Shown: positions 1-41,656 of the stretch, one piece after another
How positions within the stretch are numbered: the first letter of the stretch is position 1
How the letters are laid out: each line of letters opens with the position of its first letter
Origin: Elusimicrobia bacterium RIFOXYA2_FULL_50_26
Lineage (GTDB): Bacteria; Elusimicrobiota; Endomicrobiia; Endomicrobiales; XYA2-FULL-47-53
Assembly (NCBI GenBank): GCA_001800355.1
Contig: MGVF01000038.1
Span: forward strand, 1-42,591
DNA: 42,591 bases
Direction: 5' to 3'
Position numbers and translations under genes: made by a program
Notes under the pieces: model-generated
The model's input: only the letters and a program-made list of their open reading frames with translations
Databases searched by the model: none
Told to the model about the DNA's origin: nothing

Positions 1-2
1 TA

Positions 3-3000
3 TCCAATCCATTAATTGACAAGGCTGCGCTTGAGTTGGCAGTAACCGAAGCCGCGCGGCTCGCTTCAAAAATAAGAACGCTTCCCAACCAGTTGTTAAG
101 CGTCGAACTGGTGTATCAGTTGGTAAAAACCTTTTCAGTATGGGCTGGAAGAAATGATATGTTCGACAGTAACGGCTTAATATGGCGTATCGCAAGCAAT
201 ACGGGCGTGCAGGCCGTTATCGCTCAAAAAGAGAGCATATCACCCGAGGATCTCAGCCAGCTTTCCGACCATTTTCAGGAAATAATCAAAGGCCATGCCG
301 TGCGCCAGGACAGGTTAGCCGAAATCGCCAAAGGCAATGCTCTTATAAGCGCAATAGTAAATGTCCCGGGTGTGCGAGATTTTATAAAAGGCAGGGAAAG
401 CAATCCATATCCGCAGTACCAGGGTGGCGCGGTTGATGAAGCGATTCTTAATAAAGTTCTTGAATTGTACGATATTGGAAAGAATGTCATCGAAGCCGGA
501 ACGCTCAGAGATAACGTGTTCTTAATCAGGACTGACAAGGGTTCATTCGTTTTTAAAAAACCGCGCTATCGCAATAACGATGGCCTTGTTGGATATGAGG
601 CCTCTATTGTCGGCGCACTGGAAGGCGCAGGTATGCGGGCCAGCAGAATACTTCCCGCAAGATCCGGGAATTACACTTCTGAAATCGGGGGAGATAAATA
701 TGTGTTATATGAATATCTCCCGGGCAGAAGCCTTCATTGGGGCGAGGTTGACGGCGTTGATCTTGAGGCAAGTGCGGCAACACTTGCTAAAATTCACGAT
801 GTGCTTAAAGATTTTCATCCGGCTGGCCGGGAGTATCATCAAAATGAATTGCCGCCCGTTATCGGCATATTCAACATGAATGAACGCCTCGAAAAATTAG
901 AGAGATTGTTAATAGAGTTGCGGCGGCGCGGGCCGCCCTATTCAAATGTTGAGAAGCTTTGTTTTGACAACCTGCAAAATCTTCAACATAATATTGAAAC
1001 CATTCGCCGCAACATCACTCCCGCCGTGGTTGATCGCCTTCCGCAAACCATTATACACGGAGATTATCACCAGGATAATTTGGTATTTTATGCCAGAGGC
1101 CGCGCCAAACCCGCCGTCGTAGACTGGGAATATGCAAGAAAAGATGCCCGTGTGCGCGACCTGGCAAACGGTTGCATAACCGAAAGCCACACAGACGGCA
1201 CAAGCCTCGGCGCGGAAAAAATCCGTAAATTTATCGCCGCCTACCAGGCAAACACAAATACACCTCTTACGCCGGATGAATTATCAATACTGCCCGACAT
1301 ATACCGCCTCTGGTACCTGGAAATCATACTGCTGAACCTTGAAATGTATAATGACAATACGTTGTATCCCAACGCCCGAAGAGTCGTAACGGAACAGGTA
1401 GAAAATTTAAAACTCATTGATTCAATTGACTGGGGTAATATAGTGGAAGTCCCCGCCGCGTTAACCTTATCGCATACGTACACACTTGGTAGATTCATAT
1501 CAGGGAAAGTATTGAGATTCGCGCTTGGCAGTATTGGCTATCAGCCGGCGATAGTTACTGAGCAGAATGTTATGGATCGCTGGACGGAGCTTGTCGTGGC
1601 GCCGTTTATTGCGGTGTGGGACATAGTTGTTCACACATTGAAACTGATTATTGCTGCCGCGACGGGCAGTCTCAAGCCCGATGGGGATTACTACCGCATC
1701 GCCGGAGCCGGCATAATCTGGACGGCAACCTGGCTTGCCTGGCAGCTCACCGGCGACATCCCTATAACATACCTCGCCAACGCCTCAACCCACGCCATCT
1801 ACAACCTCTTCTTCGGCGCCGGCACAAAAGCCAACGCACCGCTGACGGTAAAAAAGGATGCTCGTGGAGAAATTTCTGGTAAATCTGGCACTGCCCTGAA
1901 CCCGGGAAAGCCTGGCGCCGGAGCCGTGGATATTGATTACGTAGACGAAATAACTAAGGCATTTCCCGGCGATATAACTATGGGTTTTGAATTGTACTTC
2001 CTGGTTTCTGATCAGCTCAAATTATCGCGGGGGAGTACAGTTAGTCCCGAACAGGCCGATTCCGTCCTTAATGAAATTAAGAAGGTGCTGCCCCCACATT
2101 GGGAGTTAGTGCCCGGCAAGGGGGCGTCCAATGGCATGAGTTATGAAATTAAGACTTGGCGCGATGCAGGCATACCTTACCAGAATTTGCCTTCCGATTG
2201 GCGCAATATCATACGAGGCATCCAGGATATTCAGAAGGCATTGCCCGGCGGCTTTTATGTTATACATATGCATACCGGCCAAATATCCAAAACAAAGGAT
2301 GAACGGCTAAATGTAAACTATTTTGAGTTGGCACGCATAGTAAAAGTATACGAGGCTATGTGGCGTGCTTTAGCCGGGCGCGGATACAGCAGGGCATTAT
2401 ACGAAGGGCCTGCGCGTGCGCAACAAAGTTTTGATTATTCGCCGCGTGCATTAGCTTTGCGCGGCAAAGTTGAAACGTTAGCCGACTCTGCTGTTCTTGA
2501 TGTTGCAGATTCGCGGGACCATGTAAAGATGATTCATGTTTGTGACGAACACCCGGATTCAATAGAAGTCAAGATAGTGGATGGGTTGTTAAATGAGTCA
2601 AGACTCCTGGACATTGGCCTGTTAATTCAAAATATCTGGTGGATATTTTCGCTGACTGAATTTATGACTAAAAAACAGGTAAATTATGATGAACAAGAAG
2701 AAATGCCGTTAGTCCTCCTTGGAAATCCCGTAGTTGCAGGCCAAAAACCCGGCCAGGCGCAAATAGATGGATTTATTGAACTATTCTATGCGAATGATCC
2801 TGTCGGGCGGGCTTTAGCTTATAAGCAATTCTCGACGCTTGGTAATGAGCCGGCGGGCATGGAAGAAAACGAGATTATTGCGCGCGAGCGCAGGATGGAG
2901 CATCTTTATGAATTAAGAGGGCTCGGGGAAATCTATAGATTGCACAAATTCCATGGGGGGCGGGATAAAAATATTGAAAGCGATTTGTTGAACCCGCCGG

Positions 3001-5150
3001 TATTGCGTAAAATGGCTGGAGACTTGATCAAAGGCGCAGAATATTTTGGCGAATACCCTGCTGCGGATACGCGGCAAATGAAACGGATATTCACACAAAA
3101 ACTAAGAAATGCAATCGCGCTGGAATTTGAACGAATAAAAAATGAAAAGGCTTTTGCTCCCGTTAATGCCATTGTAGACGAGTTGATGGCCGCTTATTCC
3201 GGTAAGTATTCCGCGGACATTCCGCGGACGAAGTTGTTTGACGGCATTTGCGCCGTATTCGGGGTAGATTTTAAGTCGGAAAAGGAGCGGGATGCCCTTG
3301 TGCCGCAATTGCTTGAAAAGTTTTCCAGATTGCCACCGCAAGAGAGAAAAAATGTAAAAACAACAATTATAGAAACTCTTCCGCAAACAACATGGCACGC
3401 ATCGGCAGCACACAGGTTTATGCCGCTGGCGTTGGCGGCTGGCAAGGGGTTCCGCAGGCCAAATGCGAATAAACTTGATACTGTTCTGCTGGCTTGGCAC
3501 TATGTTAAATCATCCGGCCTTGCCGGAGTTGTTGATAAGTTCGGTGCGGCGGTGGTTGATGATAACGGGCGGGAATATATCAATATGTATATAGTGAAAG
3601 AAATGCCGGAATCCGGCGGGGATTGGGATTGGAAAAATTTTGGGATAAACGTAAATGGCAAAACAGTATGGGTGGCTGTAAAGGATGGTGCGCTGGTATT
3701 CTTCGTTGACGGTGTGGATGGCGGAGATGCCATACATGCTGTCAATGAGGCGATAACAAACAAAGGGAATATTGCAGGCGGCAGGAGGTTGACCCGTAGG
3801 TTGAGAAGGCTTCTAAAATCAGCGAATGTGGATTTGAAAGCCGCCGGTTTTAATACCGGCTTGATTGTTGATCATGCCGCTTCCGGTAAAGAGATGCATT
3901 ATGGCAAGGACGGCAGCATGGTAGTCTCCGGCGGCGTGTTTGAAGAAATGCCGGGCATGAGACTGCGGGATTCGATATCCGTAAAACTTGGCGAACTCAT
4001 GGCGGTGAGAAATTCCGAGAGTTTTGTGATGGGGCGTTCCAACAGTTTATATTTAGACATTGATCGTAATAGCGGCAAAGAGGCTGTCAAAAAGAAGTTG
4101 ATTGAAAATATACGTGTCTCCGACAAAACAATGGGCGCAATGATAATAATAGATGATTTTGTCATAAATATGCTTGGCGAGGATGCGATCGGCAAAATGT
4201 CCGAACTTGCAAGAAAGAATGGTGTTGAAATTTGCGTCAATTGCGGGCAAGCCGCGGCGGATGGCGACCGCTACATAGAGATGGGATTTATATACTCTGA
4301 AAATGCCGGTAATAAATTCCTCATTCACACCCTGGACGATAAAATAGAAGAGTCGGACATAATAAGCGGGTATGAAACCATGGAGCAGTTGCGGAGTATG
4401 TACGGCAAATCCGGAAATATCAACAAAACCCTCAAATCCAGCGAACTTGCGCGGCTGATGAAAGGCGGAGAGAGGGATATGCTGGAGTTAATCGGCATAA
4501 CCGAATTTTTCAGGACTATGATTCTGAGTATGCACAGCGCGGATGTGATAGACCGCGAATACGTCCGAAACGTGGCGCACTCGTTTGCAAGAAACAGCCT
4601 CGCTGTGTCCGAAGCTGACCTCGATATCCTTGTGCAAGCGGCTTGCAAGGGCAATGCTTTCATGGCCATTAAAGATAAAAAGATAGGCTGTGCAAACACG
4701 TATTTGGAAAAGATGAAGCTTGACCTTGAAAAAGCGGGAAGAACGGACGAGATACCGGCATTATCCGAAGAGTTTTCAAAAGCCGTGATTGAGCGTATGC
4801 TTGCGCTAAATAAGCTTAAGAATGTTGAGCTTGCCGATTTCACCCATGAAAAGATTCTCGGCCAAAAATTGCTGCTGCAACGAAAATTTGGAACCGCGAC
4901 GGAAGGGGCGACGATAACCGCCGAATCATTTACCGAACAATACGGCAATTATACGCCCGCCCGATTTTACGGCCGTCTTAACTTGAAGATAAAAGAGTTA
5001 TGCAGCCGGCCGGAAAATGACGCCGCGGCCATAAATGCGCTTATAGAGCTTATTCCAAGCCTTGCCGAACGAAAAATGAAGCAGGAAAATATAAAGAAGG
5101 AACAAATGTTTAACGCCGATTCGGTGGGTGATACATTGAAAGCGGCATAA
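3..5150 (+). CDS. Giant multidomain protein, 5'-partial: APH/homoserine-kinase-type-II-like phosphotransferase + membrane module + amidoligase-like domain + C-terminal region
   Basis: Frame is open from nt 3 with no stop before the TTG at 36, so the true start is probably upstream of the window. APH motifs: FVFKK, IIHGDYHQDNL (~1050-1082), VVDWEYA. Hydrophobic segment ending HAIYN (1791-1805). MGFE..YEIK..HMH..SIEVK pattern at ~1975-2580. Confidence 0.85.
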   Translation, partial: SNPLIDKAALELAVTEAARLASKIRTLPNQLLSVELVYQLVKTFSVWAGRNDMFDSNGLIWRIASNTGVQAVIAQKESISPEDLSQLSDHFQEIIKGHAVRQDRLAEIAKGNALISAIVNVPGVRDFIKGRESNPYPQYQGGAVDEAILNKVLELYDIGKNVIEAGTLRDNVFLIRTDKGSFVFKKPRYRNNDGLVGYEASIVGALEGAGMRASRILPARSGNYTSEIGGDKYVLYEYLPGRSLHWGEVDGVDLEASAATLAKIHDVLKDFHPAGREYHQNELPPVIGIFNMNERLEKLERLLIELRRRGPPYSNVEKLCFDNLQNLQHNIETIRRNITPAVVDRLPQTIIHGDYHQDNLVFYARGRAKPAVVDWEYARKDARVRDLANGCITESHTDGTSLGAEKIRKFIAAYQANTNTPLTPDELSILPDIYRLWYLEIILLNLEMYNDNTLYPNARRVVTEQVENLKLIDSIDWGNIVEVPAALTLSHTYTLGRFISGKVLRFALGSIGYQPAIVTEQNVMDRWTELVVAPFIAVWDIVVHTLKLIIAAATGSLKPDGDYYRIAGAGIIWTATWLAWQLTGDIPITYLANASTHAIYNLFFGAGTKANAPLTVKKDARGEISGKSGTALNPGKPGAGAVDIDYVDEITKAFPGDITMGFELYFLVSDQLKLSRGSTVSPEQADSVLNEIKKVLPPHWELVPGKGASNGMSYEIKTWRDAGIPYQNLPSDWRNIIRGIQDIQKALPGGFYVIHMHTGQISKTKDERLNVNYFELARIVKVYEAMWRALAGRGYSRALYEGPARAQQSFDYSPRALALRGKVETLADSAVLDVADSRDHVKMIHVCDEHPDSIEVKIVDGLLNESRLLDIGLLIQNIWWIFSLTEFMTKKQVNYDEQEEMPLVLLGNPVVAGQKPGQAQIDGFIELFYANDPVGRALAYKQFSTLGNEPAGMEENEIIARERRMEHLYELRGLGEIYRLHKFHGGRDKNIESDLLNPPVLRKMAGDLIKGAEYFGEYPAADTRQMKRIFTQKLRNAIALEFERIKNEKAFAPVNAIVDELMAAYSGKYSADIPRTKLFDGICAVFGVDFKSEKERDALVPQLLEKFSRLPPQERKNVKTTIIETLPQTTWHASAAHRFMPLALAAGKGFRRPNANKLDTVLLAWHYVKSSGLAGVVDKFGAAVVDDNGREYINMYIVKEMPESGGDWDWKNFGINVNGKTVWVAVKDGALVFFVDGVDGGDAIHAVNEAITNKGNIAGGRRLTRRLRRLLKSANVDLKAAGFNTGLIVDHAASGKEMHYGKDGSMVVSGGVFEEMPGMRLRDSISVKLGELMAVRNSESFVMGRSNSLYLDIDRNSGKEAVKKKLIENIRVSDKTMGAMIIIDDFVINMLGEDAIGKMSELARKNGVEICVNCGQAAADGDRYIEMGFIYSENAGNKFLIHTLDDKIEESDIISGYETMEQLRSMYGKSGNINKTLKSSELARLMKGGERDMLELIGITEFFRTMILSMHSADVIDREYVRNVAHSFARNSLAVSEADLDILVQAACKGNAFMAIKDKKIGCANTYLEKMKLDLEKAGRTDEIPALSEEFSKAVIERMLALNKLKNVELADFTHEKILGQKLLLQRKFGTATEGATITAESFTEQYGNYTPARFYGRLNLKIKELCSRPENDAAAINALIELIPSLAERKMKQENIKKEQMFNADSVGDTLKAA

Positions 5151-5216
5151 TCCCGGATTCGATATTGCATAGCATTTTAAGCTGATTTTGTGATTTATTT
5201 TGCTTAAAATATAGCA

Positions 5217-5245
5217 TTGACAACAATAAATTTATCTGCTATATA
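5217..5245 (+). promoter_or_regulatory. Putative sigma70 promoter for the kinase/fibre cluster
   Basis: Perfect TTGACA (5217-5222), 17-nt spacer, TGc-TATATA as an imperfect extended -10, in an AT-rich intergenic region. Confidence 0.5.
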
Positions 5246-5272
5246 TAGTATACCTTTACGAAAGCATAACCA

Positions 5273-5405
5273 GTGTCTTTTTAGCGTTTAGAAGTTGTCG
5301 TCGTCATTGCGAGCCCAAAGGGCGCGGCAATCTCGCCTTTCATCAGGAGCAACGTCTAGATTGCTTCGCTGCGTTCTCAATGACCTCAAACTGCTAAATA
5401 GACAC
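5273..5405. mobile_element. ~133-bp MITE/REP-like palindromic element, family A, copy 1
   Basis: Terminal inverted repeats GTGTCTTTTTAGC / GCTAAATAGACAC. Core GTCATTGCGAG...GCAATCT...AGATTGCTTCGC...CAATGAC. Close copies at 23906 and 41525. Confidence 0.8.
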
Positions 5406-5563
5406 CATGACCACATAATGAAACATAAGCTCCGTTCATTTATCCCAATCAGATGCAGTTCCGTAAATCGGAGGCGGGCTGAAATACAGGGATAAAGCGA
5501 TGGGGTTTTTCTTTTCGTTCGCCGACGTTCGTTGTATAAATTTCCAGGGAGAAAATAACTGCG

Positions 5564-8500
5564 ATGTCAGAGAAAAAACCTAAAGAACAGATAATCTTCA
5601 ACGACCAGTACCTGGTTATCAAAAAAATAGGCCAGGGCGGTTTCGGCATTGTATGGGAAGCGTTCGATTTTAGCCTGAAGAATTTCGTGGTAATCAAGGA
5701 GTTGCTTGAAGATTTTGCCGAAACCAGATTTATAGAGATGTTTTACAAGGAAGCGCTGATCGCAAAGAACCTGATTCACGACAATATCGTGCGCGTCCAG
5801 CATTTCTGGAAGGGTGATAACGGGTCGTACTATATCGTAATGGATTACGTAGTGGGGCGCGACCTGGGACACCTGCTTAAAAAATGCGCCGAAAAACAAA
5901 TGAAATTGCCGTGGGAGCTGTCGGTTTTCATATGCGGTTCCATGCTAAAAGCGCTTGATTACGCCAATCGCCTTGCCAAGGACGTTACAACAGGCAAGCC
6001 CTACGGCATAGTTTACAGGGATGCTTCGCCCGGCAACGTAATGATATTTTTTGACGGCAACGTGAAGCTGAGCGATTTCGGCATTGCAAAGACAGCCGAG
6101 GAACTGGGACGCAAGAGCAAGCAACGTATAATAACCGGCAAGTATGCCTACATGTCGCCGGAACAGATTCACGGCGATTCCGACATTGATCACCGTTCGG
6201 ATATATATTCGGTCGGCATCGTGCTTTATGAGATGCTTTCCAATTTGCAGCTCTACAAGGGAACTTCGGACGCCATACACAAGCAGGTTACGGAAGGAAA
6301 AATAGATCTAAAGCCGCTTGAGGACATGCAGGTGCCGCATGAACTTATAGAGATCGCGCTTAAAGCCTTGGAAAAGGACAGGGAGAAACGTTACCAGACG
6401 GCCCTTGAAATGTTCCGCGATCTGCGCAGGCTGCTTAAATTCAAGGAAACAGAAGAGCTTTCCGCGGAACTTGCGGCATTTACAAGCAAGGTAATGGCCG
6501 AAGAGCTGGAAGGCGAAGATACGTTGCTTGACTGGGTACGCCAGATAAATCTTCAGGATGTCAAAAGCGATAAGGATGTAAAAAGGATTTACTGCAGGGA
6601 TTTTATCATGGGCGATCAGTCCGCCCCGGAACAACCGGCGCAGCCGCCGGTTACTTCTGGCGATGCGGAAGCGCCTAAGGATACTGTGTCGCTTGAGGTA
6701 AAGAGCAGTGATCCCGCTCCGGCGGCGCCGCCGGTAAAGGTACGTGTTCCCGAGCGGAAAAAAGCGCCGGCCCCGGCAGCGGTAGCGGAGCATAAGGTGG
6801 AAGAGCGCGGCAAAACGGTATTCGAAGAAGTAGGCGACTGGCTGGCAAAAAAGTTCAAGGTTTACAAAAAGCGGATGTTGCGCATTTCTATAGCTGTTGC
6901 GATTGCCGCCGTATTGTTTATGGCCGCCGATACGTTCATGCAGATTACGCCGCTGGGTAAAAATATTTACGCGCACCTTTACCCGCCCGACGTCGTTATA
7001 ACAACCGTGCCGGGTGGCGCCCGTGTTTCGTTGCAGACACGGGATGGCAAGTATATATTGTCAAATGCGGATTCCGTTTACCCTGTAGAATTAAGAAAGG
7101 TCATACCGCAAAGTTATGTGCTTACAGCTGAAAAGGAAGGCTATAAGCCTTTCGAGCGTGTCATAAAGATAGAAGAAAAAGGCGCCGGTTCCAAAACCGC
7201 GCAGCGCATAAATATTGTTTTTGAATTTGTTCTTAATATCAATTCAGATCCTTCCGGCGCGGATGTGTTTATTGACGGCAATAAGTTCGGCGTTACTCCA
7301 TGGAAAGGAGATTTAGTCGCGGGTGAACACACGGTAAAACTCATGTTGTCCGGTTATGAGAATCTCGGTTCAGAGGCAAAGGAATCTCACGAGGGCCAGT
7401 GCAGCCTTGATTTCACCCGTGCCACGGATAGTGAAATATTTTCAGGCATTGATAAAGTTTACTGGAAGTACGACATAACAAGCGAAAGCGGTGTCAAAAC
7501 ATTTAATCTTGCCGGCGCGCTTTTTAAACGTTACAACATCACTTCCTCGCCCAACGGGGCGTCGGTGTACGTAAATGACGAGCCGCAGCGGCGCGCCATG
7601 ACTCCCGCCGTAATTCCATTTAAAAACGGGGAATATTCGCTGCGCCTTACCGACGCTAACGGGAGATACGAAGAAACGAGAAGAACGCTGAAGGTTGACA
7701 AGGAATCCGACAACAAGGTTTTTGTCGTAATGAATCGGTGGCTTAAGGTAAAAGTCGGCATAAAGGATGAGCCTGGAAAGCCTGTCGGCGCCACGGTCAA
7801 GATAACCGGAACAGGCAATTCGTTTTCGGCCGAGAAGAAAATAACCAGTGATAAACCGGTGAGGTTTGCGTTGCCGCGGGGCAAATTCAAAATAGTTTTC
7901 GATGCGGGCAAGGAATATAAATTATTGACTTTTAAGAACTTTGAAATCGGCGAAACCGGCGAACTTGCCGGCCACATGGAATACAGCGATACAACGTTAA
8001 AAGTTATAGTGAAGGAAACGGCCACGCAAAAGCCTATAGGCGATGCCTACCTGTGGATGCGCGGTCAGATAGCAGGCAAAACAGACAGCAGCGGCTTCTG
8101 GGAAAATACTGTAATTTGTGGTACCGGGACCATACGCATAGTTGCCAAGGGTTACGCCGAGAAGACTCTTGATTATAATGTTATACCGGGCGCAAAGGAA
8201 GATAACTCACTTCTTGTTTCCCTTGATCCGGAACTCCCGGCGGCTTTGCCCAGGCCGTCATCGCCTGTGTCGTCAGGAAACGCTAATAATAAGCGCGATG
8301 AGGTTGTGGTGCCCGGTCGTGCCGGCGGCTCGATCAGATACATTGAAAACCCTGTAACGAATAAGCCCGTGATAAGCGATACTAACCCGGACAGGAGCCG
8401 CGTTGTAATTATCTGTCCGAATTGTAAAAAAGAATACCCTGCAGGTTCCAGGAAACTACGGTTTTGCATTAATTGCGGCAAACCTCTTAAATGGGAATGA
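5564..8500 (+). CDS. Membrane-anchored Hanks-type Ser/Thr protein kinase with PEGA repeats and C-terminal zinc ribbon
   Basis: Kinase motifs IGQGGFGIVW, VVIKE, YRDASPGN, DFG, GKYAYMSPEQ, SDIYSVG. Pro/Ala linker, TM ISIAVAIAAVLFMAA, PEGA-like INSDPSGADVFIDG..GVTP and ITSSPNGASVYVND, terminal CPNC..FCINCG. Confidence 0.93.
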   Translation: MSEKKPKEQIIFNDQYLVIKKIGQGGFGIVWEAFDFSLKNFVVIKELLEDFAETRFIEMFYKEALIAKNLIHDNIVRVQHFWKGDNGSYYIVMDYVVGRDLGHLLKKCAEKQMKLPWELSVFICGSMLKALDYANRLAKDVTTGKPYGIVYRDASPGNVMIFFDGNVKLSDFGIAKTAEELGRKSKQRIITGKYAYMSPEQIHGDSDIDHRSDIYSVGIVLYEMLSNLQLYKGTSDAIHKQVTEGKIDLKPLEDMQVPHELIEIALKALEKDREKRYQTALEMFRDLRRLLKFKETEELSAELAAFTSKVMAEELEGEDTLLDWVRQINLQDVKSDKDVKRIYCRDFIMGDQSAPEQPAQPPVTSGDAEAPKDTVSLEVKSSDPAPAAPPVKVRVPERKKAPAPAAVAEHKVEERGKTVFEEVGDWLAKKFKVYKKRMLRISIAVAIAAVLFMAADTFMQITPLGKNIYAHLYPPDVVITTVPGGARVSLQTRDGKYILSNADSVYPVELRKVIPQSYVLTAEKEGYKPFERVIKIEEKGAGSKTAQRINIVFEFVLNINSDPSGADVFIDGNKFGVTPWKGDLVAGEHTVKLMLSGYENLGSEAKESHEGQCSLDFTRATDSEIFSGIDKVYWKYDITSESGVKTFNLAGALFKRYNITSSPNGASVYVNDEPQRRAMTPAVIPFKNGEYSLRLTDANGRYEETRRTLKVDKESDNKVFVVMNRWLKVKVGIKDEPGKPVGATVKITGTGNSFSAEKKITSDKPVRFALPRGKFKIVFDAGKEYKLLTFKNFEIGETGELAGHMEYSDTTLKVIVKETATQKPIGDAYLWMRGQIAGKTDSSGFWENTVICGTGTIRIVAKGYAEKTLDYNVIPGAKEDNSLLVSLDPELPAALPRPSSPVSSGNANNKRDEVVVPGRAGGSIRYIENPVTNKPVISDTNPDRSRVVIICPNCKKEYPAGSRKLRFCINCGKPLKWE

Positions 8501-8533
8501 TGCCGGTATTTTTCCAAGAAAAGGAACGTTCCT

Positions 8534-9739
8534 GTGAAAATGAACTCCATGGAAAATCTCTCAAAAATAGCAACGCTCCTGATAACCGTGATCATGATTC
8601 TAGTCCATGCTCAACAGTTACCCGCCGCATTTTCAAACACAATAACCTTCCAGGGTAAACTTACCGACGACTCAGGCAACGCCTTAAGCGGTAATTACGA
8701 TTTCACTTTCAAGATTTATTCCATTGTTACGGAAGGAACTTTGCTCTGGGAAGAGGATCACGATTCAATCGTGGTTGCAAACGGGCTTTATTCCGTGCTG
8801 CTGGGTGAGAATACGCCCCTGGGACTTGATTTTAACGCGGATTACTGGCTTGAAATAAATGTAAGTCCCGCGGGCGAAAATTCATTTGAAAGGTTATTGC
8901 CAAGGCACCGTTTGGCGATGGCTCCCTACTCCGCCAACTCAGCCCGGCTTGGCGGCCTGGGTTCGGACAGTTTTGTTAATTCCACAAATCCCTACTGGCT
9001 TGTTCTTACCACCGGCGGCGTTACCTCGCTTCATACCCACGATGCCGGTTCCGTAATAAATCATCTTGACAGCGGCGAATACTACAATGATGTAAAAGTA
9101 TCCAGCGCAATCTGTTCAGACAGGCTTTCCGGGTTCGCTTACAGCCATTTTGTTACCACTTCCACGACACAGGTAATAAACGGGGCCAAGACGTTTACAG
9201 GCAATATGAACGCGGCCGAAAATTTGAACATTGGCGGGCCGGGATACTCGGTTAATTTTTCCAGCAACGTTTCGGTAGGTGATTTGTTGCAAGCCGAGAC
9301 GGCAACTATAAACGAATTAAGCGTTAATTCCCTCAAAAAAGCGCCGGGCGTGGTTGTCCTTCTGTACTGTGATGAAACACAGGGTGTGGACGTCAATGAT
9401 ACAACATCCGAGACAAACAGCAAGGCGTACCTGCTTGCGGCCAATAACTATTCAAGGATTATAGTTGAAAGTGAAGTTTACACGTATAATCTGCGTAACG
9501 CCAATGATATTCCTGAAATAACAGTGTCGCTTCTGATTGGTTTTAATGAGAAGACTTTCACGTTTCGCAATATAGGCACAACCGATACGAACTCCGGGAG
9601 TAAGGTCAATAGTACGCTGAAATTCAGCGCAGTACAAAATAATGCGGCATGGATAGTGGTAAGCATTGACCCGGATACGGCGGATAACGATATCGGGGGG
9701 CGGGCATTAAGCTTAAGGGTGTACGGCGTATTACCCTGA
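8534..9739 (+). CDS. Secreted phage-tail-fibre-like protein (long paralog)
   Basis: Signal peptide. N-domain ITFQGKLTD..G.YDFTF..W.E..NGLYSV.LG..YWLE..PRHRL..APY. Shaft motifs LGGLGSDSFV, LHTHD, QVINGAKTFTG. Beta-rich C-terminal head. AAGGA lies 8 nt before GTG 8534; ATG 8540 and 8549 are alternative starts. Confidence 0.7.
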   Translation: MKMNSMENLSKIATLLITVIMILVHAQQLPAAFSNTITFQGKLTDDSGNALSGNYDFTFKIYSIVTEGTLLWEEDHDSIVVANGLYSVLLGENTPLGLDFNADYWLEINVSPAGENSFERLLPRHRLAMAPYSANSARLGGLGSDSFVNSTNPYWLVLTTGGVTSLHTHDAGSVINHLDSGEYYNDVKVSSAICSDRLSGFAYSHFVTTSTTQVINGAKTFTGNMNAAENLNIGGPGYSVNFSSNVSVGDLLQAETATINELSVNSLKKAPGVVVLLYCDETQGVDVNDTTSETNSKAYLLAANNYSRIIVESEVYTYNLRNANDIPEITVSLLIGFNEKTFTFRNIGTTDTNSGSKVNSTLKFSAVQNNAAWIVVSIDPDTADNDIGGRALSLRVYGVLP

Positions 9740-9759
9740 TTTTTAGAGGATTCAATAAA

Positions 9760-10380
9760 ATGCGATTTATAAATAGTGGTTTTTTTGTTTTGTTTTTGAT
9801 CCTGTCGGTGTTAACGGCAGATATTTCAGGCGCGTTGCCCGGTGTTATCAGTTTCCAGGGGAAACTGACCGATGCCGACAATAACAGTGTCAACGGTTCA
9901 TATGATTTTAAATTCACATTGTACGATAATGCCACGTCAGATTCCGAAGTGTATAAGATCTGGACCGAGACGCAGTATGGAATAGCCGTTTCAAACGGGT
10001 TGTACAGCGTCGAGTTAGGCAGAGCCAACCCGGAACTTTCGGCAATAACATTCAACGCGCCTTACTGGCTCCAGGTAGAGGTTTCACCTGCCGGTTTGGG
10101 AAGTTACGAAACGTTTTCCCCGCGTCACCGGCTTACCGAGGCTCCCTACGCATTTAGAAGCGAATACGCCAACAATCTTGCTGCTTCAAGCGTCGTTATA
10201 AGCACTATAACCGCATCCAGCATTTCCGTTTCCAATACTTTTAAAATGCCCGTAGTAACCAATTTGCCGGCAACTCCGTCTTCCATAGGCATGTTATATT
10301 ACAGGACGTCAGACAACACTGTACACGTTTCAACTGGTACTGCGTTTAATGCCTGGCGGCAGCTTAACTGGCAGCCGTAA
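9760..10380 (+). CDS. Secreted fibre-like protein (short paralog sharing the N-terminal domain)
   Basis: Signal peptide. ISFQGKLTD..GSYDFKF..NGLYSVELG..YWLQVEVSPAG..PRHRLTEAPY aligns with 8534-9739. C-terminal GMLYYRTSDNTVHV..W resembles fibre knob segments. Confidence 0.7.
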   Translation: MRFINSGFFVLFLILSVLTADISGALPGVISFQGKLTDADNNSVNGSYDFKFTLYDNATSDSEVYKIWTETQYGIAVSNGLYSVELGRANPELSAITFNAPYWLQVEVSPAGLGSYETFSPRHRLTEAPYAFRSEYANNLAASSVVISTITASSISVSNTFKMPVVTNLPATPSSIGMLYYRTSDNTVHVSTGTAFNAWRQLNWQP

Positions 10381-10386
10381 TATAAA

Positions 10387-11613
10387 ATGAATTTATTAAA
10401 AAAGTGCGTATTATTTTTCCTTCTTACGGTCGCCGTCCCCGATGGTTGGGCGAACCTGTCCACGGGTACGAGTGTTTCTTCTTTTGATGTTTACAGTTGC
10501 GGGTTTAGCACAGCGTCTTCATCTTCTTACAGAAACTTCGGATTGGTCGGCCAGGCCGCCTGCGGAGCTTCCGCGAGTGCGAGTTATAAGAATTACGCGG
10601 GTTTTGTCCCTGCTTTCGTGCTTATACTGGACGTGGTTATATCGTTCATTGACGAGTCGCCCTCTTCCGGCGAATGGCAGCAAACCACCAATGTAACCTG
10701 CCATATAACGGTGGAGACATTAGAGGGTAATCCCGTTTCAGGAGTAAAATACCGCATTGCAAGCGAAGGCGCGGACGAAGCCGTATTTTCACCGTGGCGG
10801 AGCGATGCCGTTATCGAAACAACCTACAGCGGCAGCGAGGTGCGCTTCCAGGCGGCAATTCCAGGCGCGGCGCTGGACTCGTTTGCCGAGGGACAGGACA
10901 ATTTTATACAATGGCGCGCAAAAAATTCCGGCGGCGTGGAAGCGTTTTCCGGTAAATATCGCGTGCGCGTCATGGCAAACGATGCTCCTGAAATTGCCAT
11001 ACTGCAACCCGATGAGAAAAGCGGCGTCGCTTCCGACAGGCTTTTTGTTGAGGCGCAGTTGACGGATGCATGCTGGGGCATAGACGAGAATTCCGTTGAG
11101 CTTAAGCTGGATGATGCCAATAACTCTAATATCGCTCTTGTTACATCAGCCGCAAACCCGGGAATATATTCGGCGCCTTCCGGTAAGGTTTCCTATACTT
11201 ATGCCGGTGCGCCTCTTGCGCCGGGGGCTACTTATAAACTGACCGTTTCGGCAACTGACAAAAACGGCAAAAATAGCTCTTCGGTTCTTTCGTTTAAGTT
11301 GTTAGGGGGGGCGATCCCGGATATTGTGCCTTACCCTTCGCCGTTTGATCCAAAGAAGGAGAGCGTGGCCATACGTTATGTGTTGCGCAAGGATTCAGGA
11401 GTAAGCATTAACGTATACGATATGTCGGGCCGGCTTGTTAAAGAGGTCATTGATAACGAACCACGGAAGGCTGGAACGTGTGAGGATACGTGGACGGGAC
11501 GGAATTATGCCGGCGAAGGCCTGGCAAACGGCGTTTATTTCTGCGAGGTCGTGGCAACGGATGATGAAGGAGAACACCGCCGCTATTCTTCGCTGGCTAT
11601 TTTCGGAAAATAA
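10387..11613 (+). CDS. Secreted Ig-fold protein with T9SS type-A-CTD/FlgD-Ig-like C-terminal domain
   Basis: Signal peptide. C-terminal IVPYPSPFDP..IRYVL..INVYDMSGRLVK..WTGRNYAGEGLANGVYF. N-terminal S-rich SYRNFGLVGQ..SYKNYAGF motif. Confidence 0.8.
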   Translation: MNLLKKCVLFFLLTVAVPDGWANLSTGTSVSSFDVYSCGFSTASSSSYRNFGLVGQAACGASASASYKNYAGFVPAFVLILDVVISFIDESPSSGEWQQTTNVTCHITVETLEGNPVSGVKYRIASEGADEAVFSPWRSDAVIETTYSGSEVRFQAAIPGAALDSFAEGQDNFIQWRAKNSGGVEAFSGKYRVRVMANDAPEIAILQPDEKSGVASDRLFVEAQLTDACWGIDENSVELKLDDANNSNIALVTSAANPGIYSAPSGKVSYTYAGAPLAPGATYKLTVSATDKNGKNSSSVLSFKLLGGAIPDIVPYPSPFDPKKESVAIRYVLRKDSGVSINVYDMSGRLVKEVIDNEPRKAGTCEDTWTGRNYAGEGLANGVYFCEVVATDDEGEHRRYSSLAIFGK

Positions 11614-11614
11614 C

Positions 11615-12664
11615 ATGCGCCATCTTATTATACCCGGCCTAATCAGCCTGCTTATGGTGTTGTGGTGTTGCCCTGCGTATGCCGAGGCAAACCCCGCCGC
11701 CTTTCTAAATACCGGCGTCGGTGTGCGCGCCATGGGCATGGGCGGCGCCTATACCTCGATAAGCGATGATCCATCGGCAATGTATTGGAACCCTGCCGGT
11801 GTGGCAAAAATTCAGCGGCTTGGCATAACTGTCATGGGGCAATCAATGGGCGCGGCGCGTTGGGATACGCTTTCCGATGTTACGCCGGTATACCAGTTTG
11901 TAGGTATTATTTTACCATTGCAGTCATTGAACTTTATTAATATACTTGGTGATGATAACGCGGTGGGTATCGGGTATATAAGTAATGCCCTTGGCGGGGT
12001 CCCGTATACTTTTCTGGACGATTCGGGTGTTATCGTGCGTGAAGAATTTGATGACAGGGAGTGTGCGTGGTTTTTATCGTACGGCTTTTCGCTTTTGGGT
12101 ATGGATTCGTTGTTGCTCGGCGGTACTTTAAAGTACATAACGCAGGAGTTTACGCGCATAGAAGGAGCCAGTGCCAGCGGTTATGATTTTGATGCAGGGA
12201 TGATTTATTCCCTGGACGAAGGCTTTAACGTGGGTGTTCTACTTCAGCGCGGGGCCGAGCTTCAATGGGCTAACGGCCACACGGATGCCGGGCCGTTTAC
12301 TACAAAATTAGGGGTTTCCAAAAAGTTTGTCTTACCCGAAAGCTTCTCCGTGCTTGGAAGCGCGGATATTGTCCAGCGGCAGACAACGCCCCTTTTTTCA
12401 CATTTTGGCGCGGAGCTTGGGTATGAGCAGGAGCATGGCGGGGAAATATTCAGCATGGAAGGTATTTTTCTTCGACTGGGGCTCGACGGCGTGGCGCTCG
12501 AAGACAGGTATGAATACCGTGATAAAATAAATAACAACGTCAATTTTACGGCCGGTATCGGCGTAAAGTTTTCGTACAGGAAATTCGGCATTCAACTTGA
12601 TTATGCCATGGGTTCATACCGTTTAGGAGACAAAAACAGGTTTTCGTTGAATATATATTTATAA
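11615..12664 (+). CDS. PorV/PorQ-family (FadL-like) outer-membrane beta-barrel
   Basis: Start reassigned to ATG 11615, directly after the upstream stop, which gives a signal peptide. AAFLNTGVGVRAMGMGGAYTSISDDPSAMYWNPAG motif, amphipathic strands, C-terminal QLDYA..RFSLNIYL. Confidence 0.82.
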   Translation: MRHLIIPGLISLLMVLWCCPAYAEANPAAFLNTGVGVRAMGMGGAYTSISDDPSAMYWNPAGVAKIQRLGITVMGQSMGAARWDTLSDVTPVYQFVGIILPLQSLNFINILGDDNAVGIGYISNALGGVPYTFLDDSGVIVREEFDDRECAWFLSYGFSLLGMDSLLLGGTLKYITQEFTRIEGASASGYDFDAGMIYSLDEGFNVGVLLQRGAELQWANGHTDAGPFTTKLGVSKKFVLPESFSVLGSADIVQRQTTPLFSHFGAELGYEQEHGGEIFSMEGIFLRLGLDGVALEDRYEYRDKINNNVNFTAGIGVKFSYRKFGIQLDYAMGSYRLGDKNRFSLNIYL

Positions 12665-12676
12665 AGGATTGCAATC

Positions 12677-13666
12677 ATGAAAAAACATTGCCGTTACATT
12701 ACGCTGATCGTGAGTGTTGTGTTTTTCGCAGGGGCAGCCGCCAGGTGTTTTGCAGACAAGAAAGATGTTACCGACCCCGTGTTGAAGGAAATAATTTCAT
12801 CCTTCGGCGACCGGATGCCGAAATTTATTGACAAGCACGGTGCCGACATTTTTGTTGTTGACGGCACGGTAACGCGCGGCGCTTTAATGCAGGTGTTCTA
12901 TGAGTATGATAAATCGCTTAAAATCCCCAGGAAAGAAGCCGTTTCCAGGCAGGAATTAGACGAGATTAAAAGAAAATTGGCCATCCTGGAAAAGAATATC
13001 ATGGCGCCTCCTCCTTCGCTGGCGAAAAACGATATGATGCAATTAATAAACGAACTAATGCCGAATATGCCTGCGCTTCTGGATAACAGCCTTATGAATT
13101 CCAAGGTATTCGCCAGCCTCAGGGACCAGGTGCATTCCGCGAATTCCGCCGGAACAGCCACCTCCGCCGGCACTGTTGACACCCGCGAAATTGATGAGCT
13201 TGGCAACAGGATCGCGCTGCTTGAAAAAAAGTTGTTGAATGCGCCGGTTGCGGCTAAACACAACGCTTCATCTGATGATACCGCACGCTTACAACAGGCG
13301 GTTGCCGGCATGGACCAGAGGTTGAAAAAACTGGAGGGAAGGCCACAGGCAACGGCCAGCGGTGTTTCCGGGACGGATATAAATAAAATCATAGGGGAGT
13401 TGCGTCCGGAAATAGATGATATAGTGAACGAAAGCGTAAAGGATTCAAATGCGGATTCCAAAAGTTCCTCAAGAGAGATGCTGAAAAATATTGCAAAAAC
13501 GCGCAGCGATATCGCCAAAATCAACCGGCGGCTTGAAACGATTGAAACAAAATCCGGCGCCCAGGCCAGAAAGAACGGCGGAACAAGCTTGTCTTCGGCG
13601 GGATCTACATTGACCAAGGTAACACTGGGTCTTAGCATGGTCGCCGCGTTTTTTATCGCCCGGTAG
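12677..13666 (+). CDS. Exported coiled-coil protein with SLH-like motif and C-terminal hydrophobic anchor
   Basis: Signal peptide, DGTVTRGALMQVFYEY (SLH-like), repeated heptads (ELDEIKRKLAILEK, EIDELGNRIALLEK, DIAKINRRLETIE), C-terminal VTLGLSMVAAFFIAR. Confidence 0.65.
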   Translation: MKKHCRYITLIVSVVFFAGAAARCFADKKDVTDPVLKEIISSFGDRMPKFIDKHGADIFVVDGTVTRGALMQVFYEYDKSLKIPRKEAVSRQELDEIKRKLAILEKNIMAPPPSLAKNDMMQLINELMPNMPALLDNSLMNSKVFASLRDQVHSANSAGTATSAGTVDTREIDELGNRIALLEKKLLNAPVAAKHNASSDDTARLQQAVAGMDQRLKKLEGRPQATASGVSGTDINKIIGELRPEIDDIVNESVKDSNADSKSSSREMLKNIAKTRSDIAKINRRLETIETKSGAQARKNGGTSLSSAGSTLTKVTLGLSMVAAFFIAR

Positions 13667-13694
13667 AAGCGACTAACCAACAGGAGAATTTGGT

Positions 13695-15956
13695 ATGCCA
13701 AAAGTTATACTGGAGAAAAAAGCGGAAGTTATGGCCGAATTCAATTTTTCCCGGAAGAAAGCCATCACCGTGGGAAGCGGCAAGGAAAACGACATAGTAA
13801 TAAAGGACAAAAGCGTTTCCGAACACCATTGCACTATTTCATATAAAGACGGCAAATATGAGCTAAAAGATAATAATACACTTTCCGGCACGCAGGTGGA
13901 TGGGCGTTCCGTAACTATTTATGAACTTCGCATGGGAAATCGGATAACGGTCGGGGGACATTCTGTTGTATTCAGGTCTATTCAATCGCGCAGGGCAAAA
14001 GCAGTCGCCCCAAAAGAAACCGACGATGATTCATTTTCCGGTGGCCCGGGCGAGGACAAGATGCTATTTCTTCTCGGCATATACGGAAAATTTGAAGGTA
14101 AGAAATACGAGATAAAAAACGGCGAGACCTTTATAGGGAGGGAAGAAGTAACCCCCAGGGGAATACCTAACGACATCGTCCTTACTGATGATATGACTGT
14201 TTCCAAGGGACACGCCAGGATAACGCGCGCCGGTGACAAGTGCATATTGACCGATACGGGAAGCACCGGTGGCGTAGGCATAAACGGCGCAAAGGTAGGC
14301 CAGCTGAATGACGTCGAGATTAAGCCCGGCGACGAGATAGCGATAGGAAGAACTATTTTTCGTTTTACAGGCGGCGATCCCGATTATTCAGCGCCTAAGC
14401 GTTACGGTGCGGCGTTTATGAAAATCCGCAGGGTTCTAAACGCAACGGTTATTTTGGCCGTGGTGCTGTCTTCCTTATTCTACCTGTTTAAAGGTTTCAA
14501 CGGTATTTCAATCATAAATAGTTCGCCGGAGAGGATTGTTATCCGTTTCGACGAGTCATGGCAGGCAAAGGGTAACACGTCTCATCCCGCGCCGGAAGTT
14601 TATGACATAACTTCTTCTCCCGCTCTTGGCGACATAAACAAAGATGGTGTCAATGATATAGTTTTCGTCAATGCGGCCGGCCAGTTATCCGCATATAACG
14701 GCAAAACGGGTACTACCCTCTGGAGTCCGGTGGAAGTGCAGGCGCCCGGGAAGGCCTCGCCCGTGCTTGCCGACATGAATAATGACGGTGTAACGGACGT
14801 AGTCGTGCTTTCCGGGACATCCATGATTTATGTTATAGACGGCCAGGCCGGGGTAGTAATACACAAGGATATGCTTGGCGGCACGATCAGCGATATGTCG
14901 CCCGCGGTGGCGGACATAAACCTCGACGGCAGGCGCGACATCGTGGCTTGCTCCGAAGAAGGAACGGTGTATTTTATTTATTCGCCGGGTTTTGAGCTGG
15001 CTGCGGAAAAGTTACTGGAAACCGTGGAGGGCCCGGTATATGCGTCGCCGGTTATTATAGCCACAAGAAAAATTTCTCCCCTGGTCGTGATAAGTTCATA
15101 TAACAGCAAGCTGTTCTTGTTCAGCGGCAGTTCGCGCGATAAGAAAACGATAGATCTGGTGGAAAGAACAGGCAAGGCGCACCTGATACAATCTTCACCC
15201 GGGTCGGGAGACTTGAACGGGGACGGTATACCGGAATTAATCGTGCAATCGAGCATACCGCAGTATATATCGGCGGTGGACATATCCGGTTTTGAAGTGA
15301 AATGGACTTATTTTGTGGATCCTGTGCCGCCTGCCGAGTTAAAACATAATTCGACGCCGCTTGTTTTTGACATGGACCGCGATGGCGGCGGCGATGTCCT
15401 GGCGCTTTCAGGCAATGGAACTGTATACGGCTTGAAAGGTAAAACGGGTTATCCCGCGGGCGAGTTGTTGTGGAAGTATACCTTTCCTTCGGCGAACAGG
15501 ATTATCTCATCTCCTGCGCTATTTGATTTTAATAAAGATGGCATGCAGGATGCCGTGTTCGGGGGAGAGGACGGAACTATCCATATCTTTGACGGTTTCG
15601 CGGGCAAACGTGAAACCGGCAGGATACTCGCCGCCGTTAAGGCAAGCAATGCTGCAATAACCTCATCCGTCGCCCTGGGTGATGCTGATGGGGACGGCAT
15701 GATGGAGGTGGTATATGGCGATATTGCCGATTCCTTGCAAGTGCTGCGCACGAACGCGAAGGTATTTAAAGCCAGGGTATATTGGCCCATGTTCCTCGGG
15801 GACGCGGCGCATGCCAGTTCTGGCAGCCCGGATCAGGCTGGCCCGTACATTATAATGGTAATGTCTTCGCTAGTGGCGTTGATCATCCTGGCATTGGTTG
15901 AAATAATGCTGAAGAAACGGCAACTGACTAAGAGGCCGCGCGTAGTTTATATTTAA
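13695..15956 (+). CDS. Membrane protein: two N-terminal FHA domains, TM, FG-GAP/VCBS Ca-binding beta-propeller, second TM
   Basis: FHA1 ITVGS..VSEHH..SGT; FHA2 FIGR..VSKGHA..STGG. Seven S(P)xxxDxxxDG repeats. WPMFLGDAAH closing motif, C-terminal TM and basic tail. AGGAG RBS. Confidence 0.88.
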   Translation: MPKVILEKKAEVMAEFNFSRKKAITVGSGKENDIVIKDKSVSEHHCTISYKDGKYELKDNNTLSGTQVDGRSVTIYELRMGNRITVGGHSVVFRSIQSRRAKAVAPKETDDDSFSGGPGEDKMLFLLGIYGKFEGKKYEIKNGETFIGREEVTPRGIPNDIVLTDDMTVSKGHARITRAGDKCILTDTGSTGGVGINGAKVGQLNDVEIKPGDEIAIGRTIFRFTGGDPDYSAPKRYGAAFMKIRRVLNATVILAVVLSSLFYLFKGFNGISIINSSPERIVIRFDESWQAKGNTSHPAPEVYDITSSPALGDINKDGVNDIVFVNAAGQLSAYNGKTGTTLWSPVEVQAPGKASPVLADMNNDGVTDVVVLSGTSMIYVIDGQAGVVIHKDMLGGTISDMSPAVADINLDGRRDIVACSEEGTVYFIYSPGFELAAEKLLETVEGPVYASPVIIATRKISPLVVISSYNSKLFLFSGSSRDKKTIDLVERTGKAHLIQSSPGSGDLNGDGIPELIVQSSIPQYISAVDISGFEVKWTYFVDPVPPAELKHNSTPLVFDMDRDGGGDVLALSGNGTVYGLKGKTGYPAGELLWKYTFPSANRIISSPALFDFNKDGMQDAVFGGEDGTIHIFDGFAGKRETGRILAAVKASNAAITSSVALGDADGDGMMEVVYGDIADSLQVLRTNAKVFKARVYWPMFLGDAAHASSGSPDQAGPYIIMVMSSLVALIILALVEIMLKKRQLTKRPRVVYI

Positions 15957-15983
15957 TTTTTCAAGTTGTTCAGGAGGAGAAGT

Positions 15984-17438: not shown

Positions 17439-17448
17439 GGAGGAGCAG

Positions 17449-18204: not shown

Positions 18205-18229
18205 TACGGTTCAAGCCGGAGGATAAATA

Positions 18230-23905: not shown

Positions 23906-24038
23906 TGTCTCTTTAGCAGTTTGAGGTCATTGCGAGCGAGAGCGAAGCAATCTCGACGTTGCTTCTGATGAAAATTGAGATTGCCGCGCTCTTTGGGCTC
24001 GCAATGACGACGACAATCTTGAAAATGCTAAAGAGACA
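23906..24038. mobile_element. Family A MITE/REP-like element, copy 2 (inverted orientation)
   Basis: TIR TGTCTCTTTAGCA / TGCTAAAGAGACA; reverse complement of the 5273 and 41525 copies. Confidence 0.82.
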
Positions 24039-41524: not shown

Positions 41525-41656
41525 TGTTTCTTTAGCATTTTGAAGTTGTCGTCGTCATTGCGAGCCCAAAGGGCGCGGCAATCTCGCTTTTCATCAGAAG
41601 CAACTTCGAGATTGCTTCGCTTTCGCTCGCAATGACCTCAAAATGCTAAAGAGACA
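41525..41656. mobile_element. Family A MITE/REP-like element, copy 3
   Basis: TIR TGTTTCTTTAGCATTTTGA / TCAAAATGCTAAAGAGACA; core nearly identical to the 5273 copy. Confidence 0.82.

Follow-up and report, generated by a model that had tools for sequence, protein, structure and literature searches.

A giant Elusimicrobiota protein with conserved ends, a variable enzyme middle and a recurring hydrophobic module

The window analysed here, a stretch of 42,591 nucleotides of contig MGVF01000038.1 from the genome of Elusimicrobia bacterium RIFOXYA2_FULL_50_26 (assembly GCA_001800355.1), opens with the 3' part of a giant gene. Its product joins, in this order, a kinase cassette, a hydrophobic module, a cassette without family and a conserved C-terminal tail, and it belongs to a family of proteins that keep their ends and change their middle. 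As the initial annotation had observed, the open frame (3..5150, forward strand) exceeds 1,700 amino acids (aa) and begins outside the window: it comprises 1,715 codons, ends in a stop at 5148-5150 and is open back to the window's first base. That base is also base 1 of contig C38, one of 138 in an assembly of 2,011,692 bases (91.67% complete, 1% contamination), and it is the end of this contig that truncates the gene. When 5.8 billion proteins were searched by a word index, a public protein, P0006, was recovered, which spans the entire window product with two differences in 1,715 residues. P0006 is 2,311 aa long with the window product as its C-terminal 1,715, and 596 residues are therefore missing from the window; the first 596 codons, for the signal and the head described below, lie beyond the contig start, and the gene does not start just upstream. 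P0006 thus supplies both the full length and the export-type N-terminus, the retrieval of which had been proposed. The missing residues are found nowhere else in the genome's own assembly, where the best other match (54.8% identical, on contig C126) is a paralog.

A chimeric assembly had been named as an outcome that would refute the earlier reading. We compared window positions 1-5600 with contigs of four public metagenome runs (X1, X3, X4 and X6) from groundwater or soil. A single contig of 5,831 nucleotides (nt) from X4 covers 1-5309, differs from it by 7 letters and extends 522 nt further upstream, while one of 5,325 nt from X1 covers the same positions with 1 letter different; X3 and X6 cover 1-5600 piecewise. 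X1 and X3 are possibly the source of the window DNA and so not independent, and X4 and X6 carry no such flag. There is no joint in the giant frame in any of the four runs. The contigs are colinear with the frame, so the giant gene is real and the assembly is not chimeric. No cassette polymorphism was seen at the locus in these contigs. Among the 9 runs that were listed there was no RNA data set.

Within the genome itself, tblastn finds the last ~555 residues of the protein twice more, on contigs C88 (40% identity) and C107 (28%), where they terminate frames of 1,951 aa (P0002) and 1,779 aa (P0004) respectively. When the complete proteins are aligned, P0006 matches P0002 over residues 3-592 at the N-terminus and 1757-2310 at the C-terminus, and P0004 over 3-526 and 1757-2221, with nothing aligned between in either case. 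The same picture is given by a further public protein, P0007 (2,922 aa), which aligns with P0006 over residues 1-706 and 1749-2311 and again nowhere between, its own middle consisting of a metallophosphoesterase and an HAD phosphatase. The N-terminal match (P0006 1-706 against P0007 1-685 in blastp, 44% identity) runs to window residue 110, which corresponds to P0006 residue 706, and takes in a helical linker behind the head (3..332, forward strand). Two own-genome paralogs and P0007 are therefore what had been suggested as a check, namely paralogs with common termini and differing cassettes; the architecture varies across relatives instead of being fixed, and the description of the protein as a mosaic of unrelated enzyme domains holds, in that the ends are common to relatives and the middles differ. 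Five further own-genome frames carry the head without the tail (P0005 on C107, and one each on C126, C124, C31 and C75), giving eight family members in this genome, of which three have the tail. In neither P0002 nor P0004 does any part of the protein match Pfam. An internal cassette is common to P0002 (residues 941-1210) and the C126 frame (1306-1582) at 30% identity, and since it stands at different distances from the head in the two, it is a direct case of cassette reuse in another arrangement. Judged by sequence comparison, the middle of the window protein is unique among the genomes searched.

The conserved tail lies at 3483..5147 on the forward strand (residues 1161-1715, about 555 residues). 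The initial annotation had seen here a long C-terminal region without assignment; it is indeed matched by no Pfam, NCBIfam, PHROG or PADLOC model (for the window product the best PHROG E value is 0.046, and PADLOC gives none), and it proves to be a defined module of a family. A HMMER search over 1.84 billion entries returned 73 cluster representatives at E <= 1e-3, of which 58 remain at <= 1e-10 and 29 at <= 1e-30; the full-module matches all end within 40 residues of the C-terminus, in proteins of up to 6,486 aa. A search for related loci with a single tail sequence found no relative. Within the phylum the tail was detected in 18 of 151 sampled genomes, all in the window's order, and it shares frames with the head (for instance G065:C6, 9,302 aa; G085:C19, 3,078 aa; G087:C5, 1,831 aa). 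An iterated local profile detects the tail in 44 of 131 head-bearing proteins examined; the figure for proteins retrieved by the head alone is 24 of 109, many of these being cut by contig ends. On these counts the tail would be present in roughly a quarter to a third of family members. G, Y, A, F, L, E and I fill its near-invariant columns, among which no catalytic set is apparent. The tail is thus more probably a structural or docking part than a catalytic one, because the conserved residues are mostly glycines and hydrophobics. The predicted structure of the tail is confident (predicted local distance difference test, pLDDT, 84.5) and has no clear match in the PDB.

The head lies outside the window, and was studied in P0006 and its paralogs. 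With P0006 residues 1-560 as query, at least 246 proteins were found at E <= 1e-3 among 8,000 scored; the lengths among the 120 matches listed run from 1,316 to 4,037 aa, and all 40 organism-named rows among the listed matches read Elusimicrobia, Elusimicrobiota, Endomicrobia-type or Ruminimicrobium. The head is present in 51 of the 151 sampled genomes of the phylum. These comprise 38 of the 52 genomes of the window's order, the window's own genome (G000, counted among the 51 and not among the 52), 2 genomes of the same class and 10 of the same phylum with weaker scores (E 1e-14 to 1e-24). At most 8 candidates were scored per genome (7-9 matches listed), with up to 25 first-look head candidates per genome, and head-bearing open frames reach 12,027 aa. 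In genomes of named species, 236 of 243 head pattern matches are relatives, and 79 of the 80 top-ranking loci carry an Elusimicrobiota title. The one remaining locus of these 80 (L031) comes from a metagenome-assembled genome labelled Bacteroidota and is 39% identical over residues 1-596; it may reflect a binning or labelling error, or a transfer. As far as these searches indicate, the head-cassette-tail family is found almost only in Elusimicrobiota (Endomicrobiales by record names), and the link to Omnitrophota drawn in the initial annotation is replaced by one to Elusimicrobiota and Endomicrobiales. The window protein fits the family plan: residues 1-537 of P0006 match the head profile (47-55% identity to paralogs) behind an N-terminal hydrophobic segment, and the module and the C-terminal tail follow.

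The fold of the head was first guessed from a motif pattern, ahead of any structure search. A model built on the paralog P0002 (47% identical to the P0006 head) from 14 sequences has a mean pLDDT of 76.7 and a predicted template-modelling score of 0.73, and shows an alpha/beta core that is interrupted by a helical insert of about 300 residues. The top rows of the structure search, with the two values reported for each in brackets, were ChaN 2g5g (7.8, 185), the erythromycin esterase EreC 6xcq (7.7, 177), 2qgm (7.1, 175), 2rad (7.0, 168) and HopBA1 5t09 (6.7, 155). These scores fall in the tool's 'common' range, and a repeat search gave the same picture. Five of the first eight rows belong to what we take to be one fold group, the 'TIKI superfamily' (ChaN / EreC, Bcr135/136 / HopBA1). 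Foldseek returned nothing at E <= 1e-3 with the head model, the Pfam models for ChaN, erythromycin esterase and TraB matched none of the 14 head sequences at E <= 10, and the head profile found nothing relevant among PDB sequences; DUF1722 is weakly matched by 7 of the 14. Invariant across the 14 sequences are polar residues in the core strands (Q70, D71, H73, E101, H485 and others), and H73, E101 and H485 might correspond to the His/Glu/His of the esterase active site. The head thus shows a weak, model-based resemblance to a ChaN/erythromycin-esterase-like fold, and what would speak for a real fold relationship is that five of the eight top rows fall in that one group and that the polar core residues are invariant. 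With the ChaN / erythromycin esterase / HopBA1 group the head would share invariant His and Glu in core strands; it differs from the group in that its core is split by the helical insert and in having no Pfam or PDB sequence match.

Between head and tail, the first cassette is a phosphotransferase (kinase) of the APH type at 489..1229 on the forward strand (residues 163-409). It belongs to Pfam PF01636 (E 7.9e-20, 72.1 bits against a cut-off of 23.2), the sole family above its cut-off in the window product, where choline kinase is the only other Pfam match at E <= 1. The motifs that had been described as intact are located within 1056..1130 on the same strand, HGDYHQDN at 1056-1079 (residues 352-359) and DWE at 1122-1130 (residues 374-376), and the APH-like assignment stands; HxDxxxxN we take to be the catalytic loop and D-x-E the metal-binding motif. 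The nearest NCBIfam subfamilies are CotS spore-coat kinases and type II homoserine kinases. CotS reaches 55.8 bits against a cut-off of 172.7 (E 3.4e-15), thrB_alt 51.3 against 255.9 and PRK05231 52.2 against 271, and homoserine kinase (E 1e-13) is likewise below its cut-off. Every NCBIfam subfamily model being far under its cut-off, the substrate of the kinase cannot be named. Among the 104 genomes of the order, the region finds only weak matches (23-24% identity) in three other giants. Scoring above the Pfam cut-off, the cassette carries HxDxxxxN and DxE as do members of the family such as the spore-coat kinases CotS, CotI and YtaA and type II homoserine kinase, and it differs from them in being embedded in a giant membrane protein after an export signal.

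The second cassette, at 1965..3002 on the forward strand (residues about 655-1000), has no family and is possibly a carboxylate-amine ligase on the strength of a look-alike lead; it had been called amidoligase-like. In a language-model search it resembles COOH-NH2_lig (0.89), GCS2 (0.89) and Amidoligase_2 (0.88), three unnamed clusters (0.90-0.92) ranking ahead of these, and by the tool's own line scores below 0.9 are leads only. The strings GFELYF, SYEIKT, HMHTG and SIEVKIV of the window product presumably resemble strand motifs of glutamine-synthetase-like ligases, again as a lead. Profiles for PF12224 (Amidoligase_2) and PF14395 (COOH-NH2_lig) match nowhere in the genome at E <= 10, no stand-alone relative of the cassette was found at E <= 0.01 among 8,000 candidates (201-641 aa), PDB sequences gave chance rows only, and none of the 104 genomes of the order has a match. 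The earlier assignment is thereby reduced to a lead, and this stretch of about 350 residues may be a carboxylate-amine ligase. It is followed, up to the tail, by a region at 3003..3482 (forward strand, residues about 1001-1160) with no match in Pfam, NCBIfam or the genomes of the order.

Cassettes turn over widely across the family. Among 20 tail-bearing proteins they include guanylate kinase, HD, low-molecular-weight phosphatase, metallophosphoesterase and GNAT domains, a Ser/Thr kinase with WD40 repeats, LOG-like and nucleotidyltransferase domains and a radical S-adenosylmethionine (SAM) enzyme with SPASM; in 11 of the 20 Pfam recognises nothing. This repertoire is widened in head-bearing proteins by PGK, PGM, UDP-glucose pyrophosphorylase, PPDK-like, NUDIX and Maf domains, glycosyltransferases, amylase-type enzymes, methyltransferases, HAD, GGDEF and helix-turn-helix (HTH) domains, and leucine-rich repeats (LRR), HEAT and TPR. 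Of the own-genome paralogs, that on C126 carries GFO/IDH/MocA, radical SAM and CofD-like domains and that on C124 a LysM domain. By their domain assignments, the cassettes are mostly housekeeping-type enzymes and not classical toxin domains.

Between the kinase and the ligase-like cassette lies the hydrophobic module (1458..1883, forward strand, residues about 486-627 by local alignment profile), which runs from ELVVAPF to THAIYN and had been recognised as a membrane module. Its hydropathy on the Kyte-Doolittle scale peaks at residues 527-557, with weaker stretches onward to about residue 610. When window residues 101-1160 were searched against the 104 genomes of the order, 11 genomes were matched, G000 included, and most of the matches outside G000 fell on query positions 364-528, that is, window residues ~464-628. 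Apart from three weak rows in the kinase region, nothing of the middle but the module recurs in other genomes. Six copies lie in the 9,302-aa frame of G065 (at about residues 3131, 4267, 5245, 6540, 7324 and 8334; identity up to 60%), spaced about 780-1,300 residues apart. The consensus, RWxELxxAPFWxPDxxxHT ... YLANAxxHxIYNLxFGxGT, has conserved E, D, H and H-x-x-x-N positions. The H-x-x-x-N string raised the idea of an Rce1/CPBP intramembrane protease, and this was rejected when PF02517 gave no match on the window at E <= 10. The module profile retrieved only chance G-protein-coupled receptor rows among PDB sequences, and Pfam found nothing common to 12 module copies.

Downstream of the giant gene, window 5564-20365 holds a group of genes that begins, after a gap of 413 nt, with one for a 978-aa Ser/Thr kinase with two PEGA domains. 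Behind it come frames without family, an FHA and FG-GAP beta-propeller protein, a PP2C phosphatase, a double receiver response regulator and a TPR protein; Pfam matches none of several frames at 8534-13666 apart from one, which has FlgD-Ig and Big_13. The neighbours are, from these domains, a signalling cluster, and not the fibre cluster that the initial annotation had placed there. No immunity-like small frame follows the giant gene. The gap at 5100-5600, in which a promoter-like region had been suspected, contains no consensus promoter or terminator; no Rfam family was found in window 1-9000 and no tRNA in 5000-5700. The gap does hold, at 5273-5398, a dispersed repeat of ~126 nt with inverted ends that occurs also at about 23912-24016 and 41531-41650 and gives 156 blastn rows across the genome's contigs, mostly 89-94% identical. 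Summed contig depth rises from about 10-20 to 1,465-5,839 at the repeat bin, many contigs of all four runs end there, and the fold of the repeat is unremarkable (z -1.19). It is likely a MITE- or REP-like element (miniature inverted-repeat transposable element or repetitive extragenic palindrome) and a cause of assembly breaks. Elsewhere in the genome, the gene downstream of P0002 on C88 (L002:196-1848, reverse strand) encodes a 550-aa FtsH-like protein with AAA and peptidase M41 domains and without the FtsH extracellular domain, and is followed by a 256-aa frame without assignment, an outer-membrane factor, an HlyD-type adaptor and two AcrB-type pumps. The genome also contains a second, unrelated class of giants, which are repeat-rich (6,476, 4,190, 4,091, 3,793, 2,533 and 2,118 aa, on contigs C137, C8, C4, C104, C96 and C80) and mostly cut by contig ends.

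Many family members are preceded by a small frame. Of 70 loci with sufficient DNA upstream, 42 have, about 40-300 nt before the head and on the same strand, a frame of 120-260 aa with hydrophobic helices of which the last is near its C-terminus (loci L029-L108; in the own genome at C126:~14500-15083); 19 of these 42 frames are followed by a basic stretch that contains NLP- or LPRG-type strings. In the window's genome the small frame precedes the members on C126, C31 and C75 and P0005 on C107, and is missing before P0002, P0004 and the C124 member. A profile of its gut-lineage form found 17 loci, none of them in this genome. On C31 a partner frame of 199 aa continues in-frame, uninterrupted by a stop, into the start of the giant. 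On C75 the only residues that precede the giant in-frame are the last 52 of a short frame, the 207-aa two-helix frame there being a different frame. Both loci have a strongly basic stretch ahead of the giant's hydrophobic start.

These features bear on the topology of the protein. The N-terminus of P0006 (MNIKK, a hydrophobic run and an acidic flank) has the pattern of an export signal, from which we infer that the head is exported; the hydrophobic run is unusually conserved and has one invariant Phe. By the positive-inside rule, the basic stretch before the giant's first helix on C31 and C75 would be cytoplasmic and the head outside. No helix intervenes between head and kinase in P0006, so that both would be outside if the head is. 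The flank after the module in the window product is net basic, and the ligase-like cassette and the tail would accordingly be inside. In the paralog on C124, two strong helices directly behind the module enclose a LysM domain; if the head is outside, this arrangement requires an odd number of membrane crossings by the module.

The reading we favour, and to which we would give an even chance, is that the protein is a membrane-threaded carrier of interchangeable enzymes at the cell envelope. The family plan would be an export signal or anchor and a head of ~500 residues, a variable enzyme middle with the module as punctuation, and in some members the tail. Led by the signal, the head and all that precedes the first module (in the window protein, the kinase) would cross the inner membrane. 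The module would anchor the chain there, with the ligase-like cassette and the tail remaining cytoplasmic, and evolution would swap cassettes, presumably active as enzymes, between a fixed head and tail. Several observations weigh against such a carrier. Its topology is drawn from hydropathy and the positive-inside rule only, three of the six module copies in G065 are under the hydropathy threshold and the later module helices are weakly hydrophobic, so that the module perhaps fails to span the membrane. An exported kinase would have no ATP to work with. Radical SAM cassettes outside the cytoplasm could not receive iron-sulfur clusters, and relatives such as P0032 have radical SAM behind the signal with no further strong helix. 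This tension over ATP and radical SAM keeps two other readings alive. According to one of them the exported chain is handed to another cell, head, tail and modules serving for translocation and the cassettes working in the target's cytoplasm, much as in MARTX toxins; this is close to the polymorphic multi-effector that the initial annotation had proposed. A signal followed by ATP- and SAM-dependent enzymes, with intact motifs and no helix between, fits this reading and is hard to understand for a periplasmic resident. Fixed ends around a variable centre, many copies per small genome and LRR, HEAT and WD40 cassettes in relatives fit as well, and host or prey interaction has been proposed for giants of these phyla in the available text of two reports (bioRxiv 10.1101/2023.11.21.568195, PMC12057145). 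Nevertheless we consider delivery to a target cell unlikely. The mosaic part of the earlier proposal stands, but no toxin, defence, protease-release or secretion-system domain was recognised in the window protein and 20 tail-bearing relatives, no immunity-like gene lies downstream, and the variable part is central and not C-terminal. The cassettes are mostly of housekeeping type (PGK, PGM, nucleotide kinases, HAD) and are not nucleases, deaminases or ADP-ribosyltransferases, a single cassette set occupies the window locus in the contigs of four runs, and the LysM domain and many strong helices of paralogs suggest residence in the producer's envelope.

Taken further, the idea would make the family a new delivery system, in which an exported chain of ATP- and SAM-dependent enzymes behind a hydrolase-like head is usable only in another cell's cytoplasm; this we regard as quite improbable. 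It is with equally slender prospects that head, modules, tail and the two-helix partner might be read as the translocation machinery, a MARTX-like logic that arose independently in Elusimicrobiota. If true, such a system would be used against hosts, prey or neighbours, and the cassette repertoire would be a rapidly changing arsenal. Also unlikely, in our view, is a scaffold on the cytoplasmic face, where the helix and the modules would serve the chain as tethers on the membrane's inner face, with head and cassettes in the cytoplasm acting on the cell's own metabolites or envelope precursors. All recognisable cassettes are indeed of cytoplasmic types, including radical SAM, response-regulator-like parts and HTH, the module is marginally hydrophobic in several copies and its following flank is basic, and among Omnitrophota giants 46% are predicted, in the accessible text of one preprint, to have transmembrane helices only and their bulk in the cytoplasm (10.64898/2026.06.07.730766). 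The export-signal charge pattern of the N-terminus speaks against the scaffold, as do the basic stretches on C31 and C75, which point the head outward, and the LysM domain of a paralog, which implies periplasmic parts. The spacing of the six G065 module copies, the punctuating position of the module and its conserved E, D, H and H-x-x-x-N would be those expected of a polyprotein that is cut at or near the modules to free separate enzymes, the giant frame providing co-expression and co-insertion; yet PF02517 does not match the module at E <= 10, neither Pfam nor PDB sequences match it otherwise, and Pfam recognises no protease domain in the window protein, which makes cleavage very doubtful. 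That the frame is an artefact, whether a chimeric assembly or decayed genes that happened to stay open, is barely credible: the contig is cut within the gene and the assembly is in 138 contigs, but single contigs of X4 and X1 span 1-5309 and no run shows a joint, P0006 was recorded independently with the same order of parts and two differences in 1,715 residues, the catalytic motifs are intact, and head and tail are conserved over hundreds of proteins.

How does such a protein compare with known systems? In MARTX toxins the central effector domains work in the target's cytoplasm. Very large size, export, conserved flanks around variable cassettes and a cassette content that changes between paralogs and relatives are features that the window protein shares with MARTX toxins and, in the consulted text of Zhang et al. 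2012 (PMC3482391), with polymorphic toxin systems. Unlike these toxins, it lacks RTX-type repeats, a cysteine protease and Rhs/HINT, as well as any other domain known to act in trafficking or release. Classical polymorphic toxins, according to the same portion of that source (PMC3482391), have a variable C-terminal tip and an adjoining immunity gene, whereas the tip of the window protein is conserved and no such gene lies downstream. A closer parallel is found in Omnitrophota, for the giants of which (at least 10,000 aa) Nielsen & Lui 2026 describe, in the text available, one class of 'multi-enzyme metabolic clusters', and report a signal or transmembrane helices in 94% of the giants (bioRxiv 10.64898/2026.06.07.730766). 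As there, many unrelated ordinary enzymes are combined with a signal and scattered transmembrane helices (by hydropathy here, not DeepTMHMM), small genomes have many such genes, and the domains overlap (HATPase, GNAT, HAD, HD, PGM, radical SAM and methyltransferases). The window protein differs in its length of 2,311 aa and in its Elusimicrobiota relatives. In the portion of that preprint at hand (10.64898/2026.06.07.730766) the strings Elusimicrobi, erythromycin and cleav do not occur, and the mentions of ChaN and of N- and C-termini are unrelated to a conserved head or tail. Elusimicrobiota are, in the available text of PMC11573180, among the bacterial phyla most prone to proteins of more than 5,000 aa, which lack COG assignment, and West-Roberts et al. 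(bioRxiv 10.1101/2023.11.21.568195), in the part seen, find genes of 10,000 aa or more to be frequent in the phylum; the idea of predation or recognition is repeated in PMC12057145, within the text accessible. No description of the head/tail family was found in the literature covered, which excludes subscription journals and supplements. We therefore regard the protein as a new example of the recently described giant, signal-bearing, membrane-threaded multi-enzyme proteins, with a defined head, module and tail.

Three copies in one 2-Mb genome thus keep their ends and change their middle. The giants of Elusimicrobiota have been called uncharacterised, in the text available to us, by earlier surveys (PMC11573180; 10.1101/2023.11.21.568195), and one gene now becomes a defined plan. 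Profiles of head, tail and module, together with a kinase cassette whose motifs are intact, make the family tractable. Given that genomes of ~2 Mb hold at least eight family genes, with frames of up to 12,027 aa, the family is likely to be central to how these bacteria live, whatever its function.

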